Assembly (NCBI GenBank): GCA_963836755.1
Contig: CAWIKF010000002.1
Location: 1,888,001 to 1,952,000, forward strand
Reading direction: 5' to 3'
Length of the DNA stretch: 64,000 nucleotides
DNA from: an uncultured Verrucomicrobiae bacterium
GTDB lineage: Bacteria > Verrucomicrobiota > Verrucomicrobiia > Chthoniobacterales > Chthoniobacteraceae
How positions within the stretch are numbered: the first letter of the stretch is position 1; every line of letters begins with the position of its first letter. This document shows, piece after piece, positions 37,564 through 47,129 of the stretch. The position numbers and the translations under genes were made by a program. The notes under the pieces were generated by a model. The model did not search any database. It saw nothing but the letters and a program-made list of their open reading frames with translations, and was not told the origin of the DNA.

Positions 37564-38808
37564 ATGAAAATCAAAAAATACACCATCGGAATGGGCGACC
37601 GCTTCGCTCATCAAGGCAACGCGCAGCTCACGGCAGTGCTCCAGGCGCGGGACGCCGGCGTCGAAATCTACCCGGTCTGGAACAAGTCCAACCGCGAACA
37701 CACGATCGTCAAAAGCAAGCCGGCCGACCTGCGCGCGGAAGCTGATGCGGCTGTGGCTGCGCTCGGATGGAAGGAAGCTTACTATGTGGACGCCGACCAT
37801 ATCGGTTTGAAGACCGTGGATAGCTTCATCGACGGCAGCGACTTTTACACGCTAGATGTGGCGGACTTCACGGGAAAAGCCGCCGATGAGGCGACGATCG
37901 AGAAGTTCGTCAAATCGATGGATGACTACCTCGGCTCGCTGGAAATCGCCGGCATCGACGACCCGATCGAACTGACGGAAGTTTCCGTGCGTGCGGCGGC
38001 TGGAAAGTTCCTTCTTGCGACGCAGGAAGCAGGGCGCATTTACCGTCACATCGAAGCCAAAAAGGGCGCCGGGAATTTCGTGACCGAAGTCTCAGTCGAC
38101 GAAACCGATACTCCGCAAACTCCAGTGGAGTTGTTTTTGATCCTGGCCATGATCGCAGCCGAAGGAGTCCCGGCACAAACAGTAGCTCCAAAGTTCACCG
38201 GCCGATTCAACAAAGGTGTCGATTATGTGGGTAACCTTGCGCAGTTTGAAAAGGAGTTCGACGAAGACCTTTGCGTCATCGCCTTTGCCATCCGAGAGTT
38301 CGGCTTGCCGGATAGCTTGAAACTAAGTGTCCATTCCGGCAGCGATAAGTTTTCACTCTATTCAATCATCAACCGCCTCGTCAAAAAGCACGACGCAGGT
38401 CTTCACGTGAAGACTGCTGGAACCACGTGGCTTGAGGAAGTCATAGGTCTCGCTGAAGCGGGCGGCGAGGGATTGGTGATCGCAAAGGAAGTCTATGCCG
38501 GAGCTTATGCGCGGTTCGATGAACTGACCGGGCCCTATGCAACAGTGATCGACATTGACAAGGCGAAGCTGCCGAAGCCGGAGGCGGTAGAGCAGTGGGA
38601 TTCGGTGAAATACGTGAATACATTGCGCCATGTGCAAAGCAACCCGGACTATAACCAACACTTCCGGCAGTTGATCCACGTGGGATTCAAAGTAGCCGCC
38701 GAAATGAAGACCCGCTACACCGACGCCCTTGCTGCCAATGAAGCGATCATCGCTAGAAACGTGACCGGCAACCTTTACGACCGTCACATCAAGCCCATCT
38801 TCGGATAG
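37564..38808 (+). CDS. uxaE: Tagaturonate/fructuronate epimerase (UxaE family)
   Basis: GMGDRF, DADHI, EVSVDETD, APKFTGRFNKGVDY, KLSVHSGSDKFS, HVKTAGTTWLE, RQLIHVGF. Confidence 0.9.
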   Translation: MKIKKYTIGMGDRFAHQGNAQLTAVLQARDAGVEIYPVWNKSNREHTIVKSKPADLRAEADAAVAALGWKEAYYVDADHIGLKTVDSFIDGSDFYTLDVADFTGKAADEATIEKFVKSMDDYLGSLEIAGIDDPIELTEVSVRAAAGKFLLATQEAGRIYRHIEAKKGAGNFVTEVSVDETDTPQTPVELFLILAMIAAEGVPAQTVAPKFTGRFNKGVDYVGNLAQFEKEFDEDLCVIAFAIREFGLPDSLKLSVHSGSDKFSLYSIINRLVKKHDAGLHVKTAGTTWLEEVIGLAEAGGEGLVIAKEVYAGAYARFDELTGPYATVIDIDKAKLPKPEAVEQWDSVKYVNTLRHVQSNPDYNQHFRQLIHVGFKVAAEMKTRYTDALAANEAIIARNVTGNLYDRHIKPIFG

Positions 38809-38820
38809 AACTAAGTCAGG

Positions 38821-39765
38821 ATGAAATATCGCAAACTCGGCAACACTGGCCTTGAAGTATCGGTGCTAGGCTTCGGCGGTTCCTCGCTCGGCTCTGTCTT
38901 CAAGGCCATCAATGAATCCGAAGGCATTAAGGCAGTCCACGTTGCCATTGATCATGGGATCAACATTATCGACACAGCTCCCTACTACGGTGCGACCACC
39001 GCGGAAGCTGTTTTAGGTAAGGCGTTGAAGGAGATTCCGCGCGAGAAGTATTACCTCGCTACCAAAGTCGCGCGCTATGGCGATGAGATCAAAGACTTTG
39101 ACTTCTCGGCGGCGCGAGTGATGCAAAGTGTCGAGCAAAGTCTGCAAAGGTTGAACGTCGACTATCTCGACTTCATACAGGTGCACGACATGGAGTTCGG
39201 CGATATCGACGTGATAGTCAATGAAACCATTCCGGCTTTGCGCAAGATGCAAAGGGAAGGCAAGGCTCGTTTCGTTGGAATTACTTGCCTGCCAGTCTGG
39301 CTGTTTGAAAAAGTAATGGATCAGGTGGAGGTGGATCAAATCCAATCCTACTGTCACTACTGCCTCAACGATACGGCCCTCGCGGGAATGCTACCTTACT
39401 TTCAGCAGAAAGGAGTTGGCATCTTTAATTCCGCGCCGCTGGCGATGCGTCTTCTAAGCGATGAAGGCCCGCCCAAGTGGCATCCCGCGCCTGCCGAGGT
39501 TCGCGAGAAGTGTGCCGAAGCTGCAAGATACTGCCGCGAGCGCGGTGCGGACATTGGAAAGCTAGCTTTGCAGTTTTCGGTAGCTAATCCCGCCATCCAT
39601 ACCAACATTGTCGGCACTGCAAATCCTAATCGCATACTCCAAAACATCCGCGAGATGGAAGAACCACTGGACGAGGAGTTGTTGCACGGAGTCTTGGAAC
39701 TCCTAAGGCCGATTCATAACCGAACCTGGGCTTCGGGACGCCCGGAAAACAATCACCCATGCTGA
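38821..39765 (+). CDS. Aldo/keto reductase, L-galactose dehydrogenase-like
   Basis: LGNTGLEVS.LGFG.S.LGSVF, DTAPYYG, FDFSA.RV, HDMEFG, ETIPAL, WHPAP, all closely resembling plant/Bacteroides L-galactose dehydrogenases. Confidence 0.85.
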   Translation: MKYRKLGNTGLEVSVLGFGGSSLGSVFKAINESEGIKAVHVAIDHGINIIDTAPYYGATTAEAVLGKALKEIPREKYYLATKVARYGDEIKDFDFSAARVMQSVEQSLQRLNVDYLDFIQVHDMEFGDIDVIVNETIPALRKMQREGKARFVGITCLPVWLFEKVMDQVEVDQIQSYCHYCLNDTALAGMLPYFQQKGVGIFNSAPLAMRLLSDEGPPKWHPAPAEVREKCAEAARYCRERGADIGKLALQFSVANPAIHTNIVGTANPNRILQNIREMEEPLDEELLHGVLELLRPIHNRTWASGRPENNHPC

Positions 39766-40151
39766 AGAGCGGTATCTTAAACCCGCAGATCAACTCACTG
39801 CTAAGTCGAGTGCGTCATACGAATGCGCTGGTCATTTCCGATCTTGGTTTTCCATTCTGGCCGATGGTTGAAACAGTGGACATCTCCTTGGTGAAAGGCG
39901 TGCCGACTATTCCGCAGCTACTTGCGGCGATCCTGCCGAACTTTAACGCCGGAGAAGCTTTCATGGCCGAAGAATTCCTGGCGAACAATGACCAAGCTGC
40001 TTGCGCCGTCTTTACAGAAGCGTTGGGTAATGTGCCTCTAACCTTCGAGCCTCATGAGGCAAAGTTTAAAAAACGAGTGCCTTCAGCCATAGGTCTTATT
40101 CGAACTGGTGATGCGACGCCTTATGGGAACATCATTCTAGTTTCGGCCTAG
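39759..40151 (+). CDS. RbsD/FucU-family sugar mutarotase/pyranase
   Basis: MLKSGILNP, HTNALVISD.GFP, IRTGDATPYGNIIL. Confidence 0.88.
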   Translation: MLKSGILNPQINSLLSRVRHTNALVISDLGFPFWPMVETVDISLVKGVPTIPQLLAAILPNFNAGEAFMAEEFLANNDQAACAVFTEALGNVPLTFEPHEAKFKKRVPSAIGLIRTGDATPYGNIILVSA

Positions 40152-40154
40152 GTC

Positions 40155-40808
40155 ATGAAGCTCCTTGATTTATCGCAGCCTATTTACCACGGAGGTCCAA
40201 ACTGCCCCGCGCATCCGCCCGTAAAGAGCGAGATCATCGCCGACCATCCCGTTGACGGCTGGCGATTGGAACTGCTAACTCTTGCGAGCCACACTGGCAG
40301 TCATGTAGATGCTCCATTGCATAAGGTAGCCGGCGGGGCGGACATTGACGGAATTGCACTTGACTCCTTTGTAGGTCCTGCTTGCGTCGTGGACATACGA
40401 GGTATTGGCGCGAACGAGCCAATTACCCCGCAACTATTGGATCAACATCTTCAACTGCGCTTGGATGACACCATCGTCCTTCTCGCTACCGGCTGGGGAA
40501 CGAAGCGCGCAAAGACGGATGAATGGCATCATCACTCGCCATACCTTTCGCCGGCCGCGGCGCAATGGCTGGCTGAGAAAAATGTGCGCGGAGTTGGAAT
40601 CGACCACTACTCCATCGGCGGCAGCCGTGATCCCGATAACACTCGGACACACGAGATTCTGCTGGGCGCGAACGTGTGGGTGGTGGAGGATTTGAATTTC
40701 CCGGCAGAGGTATGGAGCTTGCGGCAGCCTTTTACATTCTGGGCCTTGCCGGTTAACTTAAAGAACCATTCGGGCGCTTTCTGCCGACCGGTGGCGCTTG
40801 TTGAATAA
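40155..40808 (+). CDS. Cyclase-family (kynurenine formamidase-like) metallohydrolase
   Basis: DLSQPI, HTGSHVDAPLH metal motif, GVGID, H..LL, VVEDL, RPVA. Confidence 0.88.
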   Translation: MKLLDLSQPIYHGGPNCPAHPPVKSEIIADHPVDGWRLELLTLASHTGSHVDAPLHKVAGGADIDGIALDSFVGPACVVDIRGIGANEPITPQLLDQHLQLRLDDTIVLLATGWGTKRAKTDEWHHHSPYLSPAAAQWLAEKNVRGVGIDHYSIGGSRDPDNTRTHEILLGANVWVVEDLNFPAEVWSLRQPFTFWALPVNLKNHSGAFCRPVALVE

Positions 40809-40832
40809 CGTGAACATGAAACCCTTGTAAAA

Positions 40833-41645
40833 ATGAGCGCTAACCTATTTGATCTTTCAGGTGAAGTGGCAGTTGTCATCGGCGCAACGGGTGCGCTAGG
40901 TGGAGCGCTGGCCGCAGGTTTAGGAAAGGCGGGAGCATCAGTCGCCGTGCTCGGACGCAATGTAGAACGCGGTGAAGCTTGTGCGAATGGCATCAACGGA
41001 AATGGCGGAAGCGCGAAATTTTTCCAAACGGATGCTATCGATGCTGCGAGCCTCGCGACGGCACATCGAGCAATCGAGACGGCTTTCGGCGCGACGACGG
41101 TGCTCGTGAATGCTGCCGGCGGCAACGACCCGAAAGTGACGGTCACGGCCGAGCGACCTTTTGAAAAAATCACGGCTGAAGATTGGCGCGCGGGCTTCGA
41201 CCTCAACCTTGTCGGCGGTTCTCTCCTGCCGTGCCAGGAGTTTGGACCGGCGATGACGCAGCGGGGAAAAGGGAGCATCATCAACATCGCCAGCGTGTCG
41301 GCGCACTTGCCGCTAAGCCGCGTGGTTGCTTATTCCGCGGCCAAGGCCGCCGTGATCAGCCTCACGCAATTCCTCGCGCGCGAGTGGGCGCCGCGCGGTG
41401 TGCGCGTCAATTCCATCACGCCCGGTTTTTTCCCCGCCGAGCAAAATCGCGCGCTGCTTTTCAACCCCGACGGAACGCCGACGGCGCGTGCCGCATCGAT
41501 TCTCGGCCATACGCCTATGGCACGTTTTGGCACTTCGCAAGAGTTGGTGGGCGCCGCGATTTTTCTCGCCAGTCAACACGCGAGCAGCTTTGTCACCGGC
41601 ATCGATCTGCGCGTCGACGGCGGATTTTTGTCGCAAACGATCTAA
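40833..41645 (+). CDS. uxuB: SDR-type D-mannonate oxidoreductase / fructuronate reductase (UxuB-like)
   Basis: NAAGGNDP, PLSRVVAYSAAKAA, PGFFPAEQNRALLFNPDGTPTAR...HTPMARFG, signatures of Bacillus/Bacteroides SDR UxuB. Confidence 0.78.
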   Translation: MSANLFDLSGEVAVVIGATGALGGALAAGLGKAGASVAVLGRNVERGEACANGINGNGGSAKFFQTDAIDAASLATAHRAIETAFGATTVLVNAAGGNDPKVTVTAERPFEKITAEDWRAGFDLNLVGGSLLPCQEFGPAMTQRGKGSIINIASVSAHLPLSRVVAYSAAKAAVISLTQFLAREWAPRGVRVNSITPGFFPAEQNRALLFNPDGTPTARAASILGHTPMARFGTSQELVGAAIFLASQHASSFVTGIDLRVDGGFLSQTI

Positions 41646-41652
41646 GTCTAAA

Positions 41653-42951
41653 ATGCCCCTCGAAGTCCTTTCCCGCATCGGAGCAAATGGCGGCGCTGTC
41701 ACTGCCAATGAAATCCGTGACCTTGTCGTTGAGGCTTGTCCCGCGGCGGATTATCGCAATCGGAAGGTTCTTGTCATTGTTCCCGATGCCACCCGAACCG
41801 CGCCGGTGGACCTCTTTTTTAAAGCGCTGCACACGCAGATCGGCGCGACGTGCCAGCACTTTGACGTCATGATCGCGCTCGGCACGCATCCGCCAATGAG
41901 CGATGCGGCAATCTGCGAAAGGCTTGGCCTCACTCCGGAAGAAAGGCACGAGCGTTATCCTAATGTTCAGTTTCTGAATCACGAGTGGGACAATCCCGGC
42001 GCGCTCACCTCGCTGGGAGTGATTCCAGCGGCGGAAATCAGTGCGCTCTCGGGCGGACTTTTTGCCATGGATGTGGAAGTGCGCGTCAATCGCCGCCTGT
42101 TCGACTACGATCAAATCATCATTGTCGGGCCGGTCTTTCCGCACGAGGTTGTCGGTTTTTCCGGCGGTAACAAATACCTTTTTCCGGGCGTGAGCGGACC
42201 CGAAGTGCTCAACTTTTTTCACTGGCTCGGCGCCGTGGTCACGAACCCGATGATCATTGGAAATAAGTGGACGCCGGTTCGCAAAGTAGTCGATCGAGCC
42301 GCCTCGATGGTGAAGGTGCCGAAGCTCTGTTTTTGTCTCGTAGTGAAAGGTGCGGACTTGGCCGGCGCATTCGTCGGCACCCCGGAAGCCGCATGGACAG
42401 AGGCTTCGGAGCTTTCGCGGCAATTGCACATTGTTTACAAGGAGAAGCCTTTTCACACGATTCTGTCCTGCGCGCCGAAGATGTATGACGAACTTTGGAC
42501 GGGTGGAAAGTGCATGTATAAGCTTGAGCCCGTCCTCGCGGACGGCGGCGAGCTGATCATTTATGCGCCGCATATTTCGGAAGTCTCCATCACGCACGGA
42601 CGCGTGATTGAAGAACTCGGCTATCACTGCCGGGACTATTTTTTGAAGCAGTGGGACAAATTTAAAAGCTATCCGTGGGGCACGCTGGCCCATTCAACTC
42701 ATGTCCGTGGCATCGGCGAGTTTGACGAAAAGACCGGCGTCGAAAAATGCCGCGCACGTGTCACGCTTGCCACACGAATCCCGCGAGAGATTTGCGAGAA
42801 AATCAACATGGGCTACCGCGATCCTGACTCGATCGACGTCGAGAGTTTCGCCAATCGCGAAGAAGAGGGCATCTTGCTCGTGCGCAAGGCTGGCGAGATG
42901 CTTTATCAGTTGCGTGAACCGCCGGAGTGGGCGCGTGGAGGATCAGCATGA
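41653..42951 (+). CDS. LarA-superfamily (lactate racemase domain) 2-hydroxyacid epimerase
   Basis: PDATRT, ALGTHPPM, FPHEVVGFSGGNK, WTGGK, DGGELII; ATG at 41653. Confidence 0.87.
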   Translation: MPLEVLSRIGANGGAVTANEIRDLVVEACPAADYRNRKVLVIVPDATRTAPVDLFFKALHTQIGATCQHFDVMIALGTHPPMSDAAICERLGLTPEERHERYPNVQFLNHEWDNPGALTSLGVIPAAEISALSGGLFAMDVEVRVNRRLFDYDQIIIVGPVFPHEVVGFSGGNKYLFPGVSGPEVLNFFHWLGAVVTNPMIIGNKWTPVRKVVDRAASMVKVPKLCFCLVVKGADLAGAFVGTPEAAWTEASELSRQLHIVYKEKPFHTILSCAPKMYDELWTGGKCMYKLEPVLADGGELIIYAPHISEVSITHGRVIEELGYHCRDYFLKQWDKFKSYPWGTLAHSTHVRGIGEFDEKTGVEKCRARVTLATRIPREICEKINMGYRDPDSIDVESFANREEEGILLVRKAGEMLYQLREPPEWARGGSA

Positions 42952-43466
42952 GTGAGTTTGTGGTCATGGGTGTCGCAGGTTGTGGTAAGACAAGTGTAGC
43001 TCGCTGTTTGGCGGAAAAATCGAACGGTATCTACTTTGACGCCGATGAATTTCATCCAGCTGCCAACAAGGAAAAAATGGCGGCGGGAATCCCACTGACT
43101 GATGATGACCGCTGGCCGTGGTTGGATCTTCTGAATGAAAAATTAAAGGCACTCTCAAGAAAAGAGATGCCTGTTTTTCTGGCATGCTCCGCGTTGCGCC
43201 AGAGCTATCGCGACCGGCTCGGTGTCGGCATTCCCAGGCTGCGCTTCATTTACTTGAGAGGCTCGACGGAGCTGATTCGTCAGCGGCTCGAATCGCGAAG
43301 AGATCACTTCATGCCTCCGTCTTTGCTCGACAGCCAGTTTGCGACATTGGAAGAGCCGAAGGATGCGATAGTCGCACCAATCGAGGAACCGGTGCCGGTG
43401 GTTGTCGAAAAAATCCTCTCGCAGATCAAAGCACTCTCCTGGCAATCAACCCTAAAAAATTCATGA
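42948..43466 (+). CDS. gntK: Gluconokinase
   Basis: MGVAGCGKT, DADEFHP, KMAAGIPLTDDDRWPWL, CSALRQSYR, HFMPPSLLDSQFATLE. Confidence 0.93.
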   Translation: MSEFVVMGVAGCGKTSVARCLAEKSNGIYFDADEFHPAANKEKMAAGIPLTDDDRWPWLDLLNEKLKALSRKEMPVFLACSALRQSYRDRLGVGIPRLRFIYLRGSTELIRQRLESRRDHFMPPSLLDSQFATLEEPKDAIVAPIEEPVPVVVEKILSQIKALSWQSTLKNS

Positions 43467-44485
43467 AAACCATCCGACTCGAAGAACCTGGAACCTTGGC
43501 CTTTCTCGAAACCGACGCGCCCTCTCCGCAGTTGGCCGCAGAAGATGCACTCGTCCGCGTGCATCGGATAGGAGTCTGCGGCACAGACATTCATGCCTTC
43601 CGAGGTAAGCAGCCATTTTTTTCCTATCCTCGAATCCTAGGTCATGAGTTGGCTGTTGAAGTAGTTCAAGTAGGCAGCGAAGTAACCAATCTATCTCCCG
43701 GTGATCGCTGTTCCGTCGAACCCTATATCAACTGCGAAAAGTGCATCGCGTGCCGCCGCGGCAAGCCCAATTGCTGCACAGACATCAAAGTGCTCGGCGT
43801 GCACACGGATGGCGGCATGCGCGAGCAGTTTGTCATGCCAGCTCGCAAGCTGCATAGTTCGAGCAAGCTAAGTCTCGACCAACTTGCGCTAGTTGAAACA
43901 CTCGGCATCGGCGCTCATGCCGTCGAGCGGGCGCAGGTGGAAAGGGATGAGTTCGCGCTGGTCATTGGCGCAGGTCCCATAGGTCTCGCCGCAATGCAAT
44001 TTGCGCTCGAGAAAGGCGCGAAGGTCATCGTGCTGGACATCAATGACGCACGGTTGGAGTTTTGCCGCCAGCAGCTACTCGTGCCTCACACAATCAATGG
44101 CGCCAAGGAAATTCCACTGGAGGCATTGAAAAAAATCACCAACGGAGATCTTCCAACCGTCGTCTTCGATGCAACGGGCAGTCCAAAATCCATGATGGCT
44201 TCTTTCGAATATCCGGCTCATGGCGGCCGGCTCGTTTTCATTGGGCTGTTCCAAGGAGAGGTGACATTTAATGACCCGAACTTTCATCGGCGTGAGTTGA
44301 CGTTGCTCGCCAGTCGAAATGCGCAGCCCGGAGACTTCACGCGCATCATCCAGCTCATCGAAGCCGGGCGCATCAATACCACGCCATGGATTACTCATCG
44401 GGCTAAGTTTGACGAAGTGGTAGACGTATTTGCGAGTTGGACGAACCCGCAAACGGGTGTGATTAAGGCCATGATCGAGATCTAG
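43463..44485 (+). CDS. Zn-dependent dehydrogenase, L-galactonate 5-dehydrogenase (LgoD/YjjN)-like
   Basis: GVCGTDIHAF.G.QPFFSYPRILGHE, C..C.AC..G..NCC, LGVHTDGG, FHRRELTLLASRNA. Confidence 0.85.
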   Translation: MKTIRLEEPGTLAFLETDAPSPQLAAEDALVRVHRIGVCGTDIHAFRGKQPFFSYPRILGHELAVEVVQVGSEVTNLSPGDRCSVEPYINCEKCIACRRGKPNCCTDIKVLGVHTDGGMREQFVMPARKLHSSSKLSLDQLALVETLGIGAHAVERAQVERDEFALVIGAGPIGLAAMQFALEKGAKVIVLDINDARLEFCRQQLLVPHTINGAKEIPLEALKKITNGDLPTVVFDATGSPKSMMASFEYPAHGGRLVFIGLFQGEVTFNDPNFHRRELTLLASRNAQPGDFTRIIQLIEAGRINTTPWITHRAKFDEVVDVFASWTNPQTGVIKAMIEI

Positions 44486-44492
44486 GTCTACA

Positions 44493-47129
44493 GTGAAGCA
44501 ACCCTCTTGTTTCTTGCTTTTCCTTAGCTATTGCTTGCTTGCGGCACTGACTCATTCAGCAATGGGCGAGACGTCACCTCGCGAGCGGATTCTTTTGACT
44601 TCGAACTGGCTTTTCAAGAAGGACGACCCGGCCGGCGCGGGTGAAAGTTTTGCATACGATAAGCTAAAGCCATGGGTGCTTCCCGCCGCGAATGCGTTCT
44701 CCTCGAAACAGGTTCGGCGGCCTGCGGGCGAGGCGCCGGGCGAAAATGTAGATTATACCCAAGGCTCCTACGACGATTCTTCATGGCGAAAGGTGAACCT
44801 GCCGCACGACTGGGCGATAGAAGGTCCTTTCAAACAAGAATATCCGGGCAGCACCGGAAAGCTTGCTTATTGGGGCGTTGGCTGGTATCGCAAACACTTT
44901 ACCTCGCCGAGTGCTGACAAAGGCAGGCAAGTCTTTTTGGATATCGACGGCGCAATGTCCTACTCGGCAGTCTGGTTAAACGGCAAGTTTGTTGGCGGCT
45001 GGCCCTATGGCTACTCATCCTACCGTCTGGATCTTACGCCTTATCTTAAAATAGGAGCTGACAACGTCATCTCCATCCGCCTCGACAACCCTAAGAATTC
45101 CTCGCGGTGGTATCCCGGCGCCGGCATCTATCGCAACGTCTGGCTCGTCAAAACTGCTCCAGTTCATGTCGCTCATTGGGGAGTGATAATCAAAACGGTC
45201 AATGCGAGCAAAGATGAAGCGACTATTCAGATATCAGCCAACATAGACCAACCTCCGGACACGAGCATTGCGGTCGCGGAAACCATTTATGAGTTGAAGC
45301 CAGACGGCACGAGGGGAGGGGAACCAGTTGCCAAAGGTATGCCTTTGGCGAGCGACGTGCTTGTGAAAACAGGAGTGCAGTTGACTGAGTTAAAAGTTAA
45401 AAAGCCGAAGGTCTGGAATTTGGATTCTCCCAACCTCTACTGTGTCGTGACGGATGTTCTTAAAGACGGAAAGGTGGTTGATCAATGTGTGACCGCCTTC
45501 GGCATACGCACTATCGAATTCACAGCCGACAAAGGGTTTTCATTGAACGGGAAGAAGGTAAAGCTAAATGGCACCTGCAATCATTCTGATCTCGGAGCGC
45601 TTGGAATAGCAGTCAATGTCCGCGGGCTCCAGCGCCAGATTGAGATCCTCAAGGAGATGGGCTGCAATGCGATTCGCACCAGTCACAACATGCCGGCACC
45701 TGAGTTGTTAGACCTTTGTGATCGGATGGGGATGCTCGTCATGGATGAATCTTTCGACTGCTGGCAACGCGCCAAAACTCCGGGCGACTACCATCTTCTT
45801 TTTAACGATTGGCATGAGCCAGATATCCGCGCGGAAGTGCGTCGCGACCGCAACCATCCTTCCATAGTTCTCTGGAGCATTGGCAATGAAATTCCGGAGC
45901 AGGGAAGTCCAAAAGGGAGTTCAATTGCGGCGGAGCTAACTCATATCATTCACGAAGAGGATTCCACGAGATACTCTACCGTCGCTTGCAGTTCCACCAC
46001 CGCCGGCTATACGGATTACGCAAAAGCCGTCGATGTCTTTGGCTATAACTATAAACCTGATGAGTATACGAAATTTCATGAGACCAACCCGCTCATACCG
46101 CTCTTTGGCAGCGAAACTTCCTCCACTGTCAGCACGCGCGGCGAATACTTTTTTCCGTTGAATACGGAACTTGAGGATTTTCAGGTAACTTCCTATGACA
46201 CCTACAAGCCGCACTGGGCGACTCTTCCGGATACTGAGTTCGCCGGGCAGGAAAAGAACCCTTTCGTGGCAGGTGAGTTTGTGTGGACTGGTTTTGACTA
46301 CATGGGCGAGCCAACTCCCTATAACAAGGATAGCAGCATACTTCTCAACTTTTCCACTCCAAAAGAAAAAGCCAAGGCCGAAGCCGACCTGAAGGCTTCT
46401 CAGAAGATACCTGTTCCTTCGCGGAGTTCCTACTTTGGAATCGTCGATTTGTGTGGGTTTAAAAAAGACCGTTTCTACCTCTACCAATCCGTTTGGCGCC
46501 CGGATTATCCAATGGCCCACATTGTTCCGCATTGGAACTGGCCTGAGCGCGTCGGTCAGCAGACGCCGGTCTTTGTCTATACTTCTGGCGACGAGGCTGA
46601 ACTTTTTCTCAACGGCGCTTCGCTCGGTAAAAAGAAGAAGGATCCATTTCAATACAGGATCGGCTGGGACGAGGTGACTTATCAGCCAGGGGAATTGAAA
46701 GTGGTTGCTTACAAAAATGGCAAAGAGTGGGCGACCGATCGCGTGAAGACTACAGGACAGCCGGCAAAGATTCTGCTGGCGCCCGACCGAAAATCTATCA
46801 TGGGCGATGGCCGCGACCTTTGCTTTGTGACGGTAAGCATCGTGGATCAAAATGGACTTTCGGTTCCGCGCTCTCATCCGAAGCTGCAATTTGCTATCAC
46901 CGGGCCCGGAGAGATCGTTGCGACCGACAACGGCGATCCGACCGATCAAACCTCTTTCCCGTCCACCGAACGCGCCGCTTTCAACGGTATGGCTCTTGTC
47001 ATTATTCGAGCCAAACCCGGTGCCGCGGAAAAGATCACCCTCCATGCAATCGGGGAAGGACTGCCAGCGAGCGATACAGTGATTCTGCCGACGAGCTCGG
47101 TAGTCTCGCCTTTAACTCCTGAAGGTTGA
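44493..47129 (+). CDS. Secreted GH2 glycosidase (beta-galactosidase-like)
   Basis: LPHDWAIEG, SRWYPGAGIYR, IRTSHN, RDRNHPS..LWSIGNE, FGSETSS, WTGFDY.GEP. Confidence 0.92.
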   Translation: MKQPSCFLLFLSYCLLAALTHSAMGETSPRERILLTSNWLFKKDDPAGAGESFAYDKLKPWVLPAANAFSSKQVRRPAGEAPGENVDYTQGSYDDSSWRKVNLPHDWAIEGPFKQEYPGSTGKLAYWGVGWYRKHFTSPSADKGRQVFLDIDGAMSYSAVWLNGKFVGGWPYGYSSYRLDLTPYLKIGADNVISIRLDNPKNSSRWYPGAGIYRNVWLVKTAPVHVAHWGVIIKTVNASKDEATIQISANIDQPPDTSIAVAETIYELKPDGTRGGEPVAKGMPLASDVLVKTGVQLTELKVKKPKVWNLDSPNLYCVVTDVLKDGKVVDQCVTAFGIRTIEFTADKGFSLNGKKVKLNGTCNHSDLGALGIAVNVRGLQRQIEILKEMGCNAIRTSHNMPAPELLDLCDRMGMLVMDESFDCWQRAKTPGDYHLLFNDWHEPDIRAEVRRDRNHPSIVLWSIGNEIPEQGSPKGSSIAAELTHIIHEEDSTRYSTVACSSTTAGYTDYAKAVDVFGYNYKPDEYTKFHETNPLIPLFGSETSSTVSTRGEYFFPLNTELEDFQVTSYDTYKPHWATLPDTEFAGQEKNPFVAGEFVWTGFDYMGEPTPYNKDSSILLNFSTPKEKAKAEADLKASQKIPVPSRSSYFGIVDLCGFKKDRFYLYQSVWRPDYPMAHIVPHWNWPERVGQQTPVFVYTSGDEAELFLNGASLGKKKKDPFQYRIGWDEVTYQPGELKVVAYKNGKEWATDRVKTTGQPAKILLAPDRKSIMGDGRDLCFVTVSIVDQNGLSVPRSHPKLQFAITGPGEIVATDNGDPTDQTSFPSTERAAFNGMALVIIRAKPGAAEKITLHAIGEGLPASDTVILPTSSVVSPLTPEG

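Follow-up and report, generated by a model that had tools for sequence, protein, structure and literature searches.

A predicted L-galactose gene cluster

Nine genes lie in a row on the same strand of the window, by which we mean the whole 64,000-nucleotide stretch of DNA from an uncultured Verrucomicrobiae bacterium that was analyzed. In order, they encode UxaE, an aldo-keto reductase (AKR), an RbsD/FucU protein, a cyclase-family protein, a UxuB-type SDR, a LarA homologue, GntK, a Zn-dependent dehydrogenase and a GH2 glycoside hydrolase.

37564..38808, + strand: UxaE tagaturonate/fructuronate epimerase (PF16257, E 2e-54)
38821..39765, + strand: AKR, likely L-galactose 1-dehydrogenase, the lactone maker (PDB matches)
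39759..40151, + strand: RbsD/FucU mutarotase-type protein (PF05025, E 2e-26)
40155..40808, + strand: cyclase/KynB-fold metallohydrolase (PF04199), 217 aa, predicted L-galactonolactonase (Pfam, genomic context)
40290..40322, + strand: HxGxHxDxPxH motif of the cyclase, HTGSHVDAPLH, residues 46-56 (H46, H50, D52, H56)
40833..41645, + strand: UxuB-type D-mannonate oxidoreductase, an SDR (NF006132, 313 bits, cut-off 281)
41653..42951, + strand: LarA-superfamily protein, likely a nickel-pincer gluconate 2-epimerase, GntE-like (4NAR, E 3e-68)
42948..43466, + strand: gluconokinase GntK (TIGR01313, 179 bits, above cut-off)
43463..44485, + strand: Zn-dependent dehydrogenase, likely L-galactonate 5-dehydrogenase, which needs the open acid (PF08240/PF00107)
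44493..47129, + strand: GH2 glycoside hydrolase (GalB model NF041463, above cut-off)

When the AKR was searched against the PDB, the top five matches were all L-galactose dehydrogenases (E 8e-105 to 5e-92) and the next match lay at 2.5e-32. Its residues M209 and W220 are spaced like M212 and W223 reported for Lu-LGDH, a likeness of spacing rather than of alignment (PMC13661200). The RbsD/FucU protein falls below the NCBIfam D-ribose pyranase cut-off, with a score of 88 versus 93. The LarA homologue scores under the cut-off of NF052594, and its best PDB match, 4NAR, is given as the gluconate 2-epimerase GntE2 in PMC7583248; larB, larC and larE are present elsewhere in the genome. No curated model was passed by the Zn dehydrogenase in a scan of curated profiles, and its likely role as L-galactonate 5-dehydrogenase is drawn from its recurring linkage to the AKR. 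The role of UxaE is taken from the description in PMC6353982. GH2 genes were found near only 2 of the cyclase loci described below (best 80 of 149), and the GH2 gene is therefore probably peripheral to the L-galactose cluster. A scan of the window for promoters and terminators gave signal at chance level. The gene set of 37564-44485 recurs in loci L020, L029, L127, L187 and L189.

From these assignments we infer a dehydratase-free pathway from L-galactose to 6-phosphogluconate that runs through a GntE-like nickel-pincer epimerase. The mutarotase would supply the L-galactose anomer for the AKR, which would convert L-galactose to L-galactono-1,5-lactone, and the cyclase would then take L-galactonolactone and water to L-galactonate. 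The Zn dehydrogenase would turn L-galactonate into D-tagaturonate, which UxaE would convert to D-fructuronate and UxuB to D-mannonate, leaving the GntE-like epimerase to form D-gluconate and GntK to yield 6-phosphogluconate.

The cyclase gene and its putative metal site

The cyclase reading frame opens with an ATG 3 nt past the RbsD/FucU stop at 40151 and ends 24 nt short of the SDR at 40833, confirming the position between mutarotase and SDR that was given in the preliminary description of this DNA. In a Pfam scan, PF04199 was the sole domain of the protein (E 6e-29, 101.5 bits against a cut-off of 23.1), and neither PF04909 nor PF08450 was detected in it. The metal motif is intact, as had also been claimed, and a two-metal site is predicted in which H166 and E178 would be the remaining ligands. 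Among the 120 closest homologues, a set picked by similarity, H46, D52, H56, H166 and E178 are kept in all 120 and H50 in 119. The ligands reported for the two-zinc site of the cyclase-phosphotriesterase C-PTE are H92, H96, D98, H102, H224 and E236 (PMC12135135), and the six residues of the window cyclase, compared by spacing, are set apart in the same way.

An AlphaFold2 model of the protein has a pLDDT of 88, with residues 55-57 under 50. Foldseek matched this model to KynB, isatin hydrolase, C-PTE and uncharacterized members of the family, and all listed matches at E<=0.001 are members of the cyclase family. As judged from the model, the fold is shared with KynB (4COG, 4COB, 4CO9) at TM 0.74-0.81, and the two proteins have in common the HxGxHxDxPxH motif and the His and Glu of the second metal. 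The Ruegeria pomeroyi cyclase-PTE (8F9X) and the isatin hydrolases belong to the same family as well, at 21-27% identity.

A mechanism modeled on the cyclase family can be proposed, in which two divalent metals, one at H46/H50/D52/E178 and the other at D52/H166/E178, would activate water for attack on the lactone carbonyl, with H56 acting as a proton shuttle. The subfamily-specific polar residues C17, H20, H151 and Y152 would bind the sugar hydroxyls. Two cysteines, C17 (40203-40205) and C210 (40782-40784), are invariant in 120/120 close homologues, within NCPxHPP and GxFCRP, respectively, and a disulfide, a metal or a pocket role is conceivable for them.

Candidate lactonases elsewhere in the genome

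The preliminary description had arrived at a lactonase by elimination, on the grounds that the pathway needs lactone hydrolysis and that the operon has no amidohydrolase or SMP-30 gene. The Pfam scan bears out the second point, as neither is found among the nine operon genes. Nevertheless, elimination makes a weak case, because the genome has candidate lactonases outside the operon and because a lactonase may be dispensable. A single PF04909 amidohydrolase gene, 44% identical to operon-type lactonases, is located at C1:723712, where it adjoins an SDR and RhaT, and a single SMP-30 gene is located at C1:748420; a profile search of the genome found no PF10282. The SDR, the amidohydrolase-family lactonase and the RhaT symporter (G000:C1:722717-725799, locus L230) form a second, rhamnose- or fucose-like sugar locus, one that could serve as a back-up for lactone hydrolysis.

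As for the need for hydrolysis, the characterized cluster of Luteolibacter LG18, as listed in PMC12632266, includes no lactonase, and the same source reports that LguA alone yielded L-gluconate in vitro. The 1,5-lactone of L-fucose, the C6-deoxy analogue, is described as rearranging to a 1,4-lactone that hydrolyzes slowly (PMC13406643), and a lactonase would therefore help. By analogy, a lactonase is plausibly helpful in the L-galactose pathway without being essential.

Cyclase and amidohydrolase genes at homologous loci

The amidohydrolase gene that relatives carry in place of the cyclase matches PDB 4DLF, "Amidohydrolase 2" (E 4e-56). We looked for the two genes in 99 AKR-centered loci, made up of 19 genomes and 80 metagenome contigs, and found the amidohydrolase in 28, the cyclase in 13, both in none and neither in 58. 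Among 80 cyclase-centered loci (the best 80 of 149), the amidohydrolase was found in none. Mutual exclusivity across homologous operons, put forward earlier as a test, thus holds in both sets. Many of the 58 loci with neither gene are short, and 25 have long flanks; a Pfam scan of 104 of the 109 ORFs in these 25 (the remaining five being duplicate L161 ORFs) found no amidohydrolase, SMP-30 or PF10282 gene, with the proviso that a greedy choice of ORFs can miss genes. What the scan turned up instead were neighbors of esterase type, as in L109. A weak SMP-30-like match was seen in L183.

The AKR is present in 26 of the 80 cyclase-centered loci (best 80 of 149), where the cyclase directly follows the AKR in 18, follows RbsD in 7 and lies upstream of the AKR in 1; an adjacent AKR is absent from the other 54. 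What lies downstream varies. In L020, L029 and L127 the cyclase accompanies a UxaE-UxuB-LarA-GntK lower branch, and in L026, L048, L145 and L184 it accompanies a UxaA-UxaB lower branch in lguABCD order. In both types of cluster, the cyclase remains grouped with the upper-pathway genes. In L080, which is titled Haloferula luteola, the AKR, cyclase and dehydrogenase genes are likewise linked.

In order to place the two partners on the history of the AKR, we built a FastTree phylogeny of 59 AKRs (reduced from 68 by merging those 95% identical) with midpoint rooting, from loci that carry one partner or the other. Fitch parsimony gave 7 label changes versus a mean of 19.7 for shuffled labels, indicating that kin share labels, yet swaps recur. 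For example, the AKRs of L121 (amidohydrolase) and L021 (cyclase) are 83% identical and have opposite partners.

Several side observations were made at these loci. Across L121-L193, the Zn dehydrogenase falls into two subtypes, with about 460-475 versus 550-590 bits to the profile; in most loci the lower-scoring subtype accompanies the amidohydrolase and the higher-scoring one the cyclase. GH29 and GH95 glycosidases flank the AKR loci L107, L109, L141 and L149. The GH95 family includes an L-galactosidase role, and these enzymes could be releasers of L-galactose.

Distribution among genomes

In one family (f10), sampled as 101 genomes at least 90% complete, the AKR is present in 17 of 18 cyclase genomes versus 40 of the 83 others. 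Among the 57 AKR genomes of this family, at E<=1e-30 there are 40 with the amidohydrolase only, 13 with the cyclase only, 4 with both and none with neither; at the stricter E<=1e-75 the corresponding counts are 25, 16, 1 and 15. Put differently, the amidohydrolase is absent from 13 of the 17 genomes with cyclase and AKR versus 0 of the 40 AKR genomes without the cyclase. In the 4 of the 17 that also have the amidohydrolase, the copy in G318 is a close one and is linked to its AKR. A phylum sample of 251 genomes contained the AKR in 20 and a close cyclase in 3, all 3 of them AKR-bearing. The window's own genome has both genes, the operon cyclase and the 44%-identical amidohydrolase elsewhere, and an amidohydrolase match is missing from only 2 of the 20 AKR genomes, which are the two other close-cyclase genomes. 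Both genes also occur in G265, G298, G317, G318, G329 and G375, some of which are possibly one genome under two labels. Fisher p-values for these comparisons overstate the case because kin are not independent, labels are clustered on the tree and some genomes recur between samples, which overlap in part and consist mostly of incomplete assemblies. Across AKR-bearing loci and genomes, the distribution of the cyclase is largely complementary to that of the amidohydrolase lactonase.

Unlinked and distant copies of the cyclase

Of the 54 cyclase loci with no adjacent AKR, 50 were examined at the genome level, the four left out (L031, L037, L076 and L078) having other pathway genes adjacent. The AKR is located elsewhere in 41 of these 50 genomes, which is only a moderate enrichment given the high AKR background in f10 (57 of 101 genomes). 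A close amidohydrolase (58% identity or more) is present in 2 of the 50; with a threshold of E<=1e-30 the count is 6, and with E<=1e-15 it is 28. A recurrent group comprising an enolase-superfamily gene, a protein of ~480 aa with no Pfam match and an unknown protein of ~160 aa (L054:10724-13445, L065:7445-9391 and L115:4975-6895) is found beside unlinked cyclases, and follows the AKR and dehydrogenase in L115.

In a sample of the class Planctomycetia, the cyclase is present in only 4 of 151 genomes. Among the orphan-cyclase genomes titled Planctomycetia, only 8 of 14 have the AKR; its identity there is 40-44%, and the proportion is close to the background level. In the family of G272, which is Gemmataceae going by the title of L043 (Zavarzinella formosa, in which the AKR query gave no match), the cyclase is found in 3 of 81 genomes, and the AKR in none of these 3 versus 47 of the 81 overall; the Zn dehydrogenase is present in all 3, yet it is also present in 57 of the 81. 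In five genomes of Gemmataceae, the genes neighboring the Zn dehydrogenase gave no matches to the operon profiles. The cyclases of Gemmataceae may have a different lactone as substrate; alternatively, L-galactonolactonase may be too narrow an assignment.

More distant cyclases (~30% identity) occur in mixed contexts, including one beside kynureninase in L238, and the lactonase claim is therefore limited to the close subfamily. The neighbors of such distant cyclases in L231, L232, L235 and L237 include genes for an SDR, Gfo/Idh/MocA or a four-carbon acid-sugar kinase, a hint that more of the cyclase subfamilies are linked to sugars. P0175 and P0260 are AMP-binding enzymes with a cyclase domain fused at the C-terminus; fusions among distant relatives, whether tandem cyclase or AMP-binding, are uninformative on the role of the cyclase.

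Predicted function and alternative explanations

The reading that we favor, at a probability of roughly 70%, is that the window cyclase is the L-galactonolactonase of the predicted L-galactose pathway and replaces the amidohydrolase-family lactonase of related clusters. It was proposed in the preliminary description as a non-orthologous L-galactonolactonase, and exclusivity at the AKR loci (0/99) and cyclase loci (0/80, best 80 of 149), along with complementarity in f10, supports that proposal. That the predicted protein has some role with a sugar lactone is very probable.

The family had been characterized as one that hydrolyzes C-N bonds. Formamide and cyclic amide hydrolysis are indeed known, but the restriction to such bonds does not hold, since the cyclase-PTE is reported to degrade phosphotriesters and the lactone TBBL (PMC9371700). 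For its statement on lactones, PMC12135135 refers to a review from 2008, which is older than C-PTE, and we therefore take the lactone activity from PMC9371700. TBBL as described there is a synthetic, hydrophobic lactone, in contrast to the sugar lactone of the pathway.

An unlikely alternative would have the protein act as a broad aldonolactonase, or as a 1,5/1,4-lactone isomerase, with L-glucono-, L-fucono- or D-arabinono-lactone as the main substrate, and the L-galactose cluster would then have recruited it. Unlinked copies in Gemmataceae genomes that have no AKR fit such an enzyme, as do a fucose isomerase near the cyclase in one locus (L080) and a xylose-isomerase-like TIM-barrel gene with RbsD near the cyclase in L005, L035, L066 and L075, the latter pair resembling the lguG-rbsD pair described for L-glucose use (PMC12632266). 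However, the cyclase of Verrucomicrobia tracks an L-galactose-type AKR in 17 of 18 genomes (f10), and LguA is reported to be inactive on L-fucose and D-arabinose (PMC12632266). Considered on its own, the pairing of this TIM-barrel gene and a divergent RbsD in the vicinity of the cyclase, seen in L005, L007, L035, L045, L046, L066 and L075, may mark wider L-glucose use.

It is improbable that the protein acts upstream of the AKR as an esterase or amidase that strips modified sugars of an acyl or formyl group as they come in. The family is best known for hydrolyzing formamides and cyclic amides (PMC6117287, as described there) and several AKR loci are flanked by glycosidases and esterases, but such an activity leaves unexplained both why the cyclase and the amidohydrolase lactonase so rarely occur together and the AKR-cyclase-dehydrogenase gene order.

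Source annotations name the protein arylformamidase or kynurenine formamidase, its fold and metal ligands are identical in kind to those of such enzymes, and many cyclase copies are unlinked. Even so, we consider it quite improbable that the protein works as a kynurenine formamidase, or as an amidohydrolase of the isatin type, and lies in the operon by chance. Identity to KynB is ~23-26%, and the TIGR03035 equivalog score is 80.9 versus a cut-off of 223. The W-P-G-D stretch of KynB, with its Trp and Asp, is replaced by C17-P-A-H20, and its D-V/T-P-S (DxPS) stretch by D150-H-Y-S. Of the kynurenine-pathway genes, a search of the genome, which is 96% complete, turned up neither tryptophan dioxygenase (TDO) nor kynureninase. 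The GLQC/GLAS signature given for isatin hydrolases in PMC6117287 is absent, with VVEDL at 176-180 instead.

The cyclase, with its His-rich metal site, is encoded two genes before the LarA homologue, which would suggest a metal or cofactor helper of the nickel-pincer epimerase. Such a role is scarcely credible, given that LarA is present in only 3 of the 80 cyclase loci (best 80 of 149), that the cyclase is kept with both types of lower branch, including UxaA/UxaB clusters without LarA, and that larB, larC and larE lie elsewhere in the genome.

Comparison with known systems

BVU0220, the L-galactono-1,5-lactonase of Phocaeicola (Bacteroides) vulgatus, and 4DLF are enzymes that we take to be cog3618 amidohydrolase lactonases. 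The reaction predicted for the window cyclase equals that of the cog3618 lactonases (L-galactono-1,5- in P. vulgatus and L-fucono-1,5- in Burkholderia), and both occupy the step that follows L-galactose dehydrogenase and precedes L-galactonate dehydrogenase, whereas the families, PF04909 and PF04199, are unrelated. The L-galactose pathway of P. vulgatus was described by Hobbs et al., as cited in PMC13661200.

The lguABCDEF cluster of Luteolibacter LG18, which encodes an L-glucose/L-galactose pathway as presented in PMC12632266, shares its order of AKR, UxaA, UxaB and Zn dehydrogenase with L026, L048 and L145, which differ in that the AKR is followed by two additional genes, RbsD and the cyclase. 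LG18 uses an altronate/KDG branch, in contrast to the UxaE-UxuB-GntE-GntK branch of the window.

A further lead comes from FdrD, a SalO-like "putative cyclase" whose gene comes right after that of FdrC, a ribose dehydrogenase that forms a lactone (PMC5947533). Its location beside a lactone-forming dehydrogenase is like that of the window cyclase, and the same source reports that FdrC itself hydrolyzed the lactone and that a salO knockout had no obvious effect. In the literature searched, to which few subscription papers contributed, we found no sugar lactonase of the PF04199 family.

Significance

A broader reading, which we advance tentatively and hold to be somewhat doubtful, is that the cyclase/KynB fold is an independent sugar-lactonase scaffold that has been swapped repeatedly with the amidohydrolase across Verrucomicrobia and that completes a dehydratase-free, nickel-pincer route for L-galactose. 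The same scaffold possibly explains the orphan cyclases (SalO/FdrD) beside lactone-forming dehydrogenases. The novelty would lie in the pairing of a known reaction with a known fold, which would add one more fold to the known sugar lactonases. If the lactonase assignment is correct, it would fill the missing step of L-galactose use in Verrucomicrobia and explain the apparent absence of a lactonase from some L-galactose clusters. Furthermore, it would give the kynurenine-formamidase (cyclase) family a new physiological job, and a large subfamily now named kynurenine formamidase or arylformamidase would be assigned its real one.
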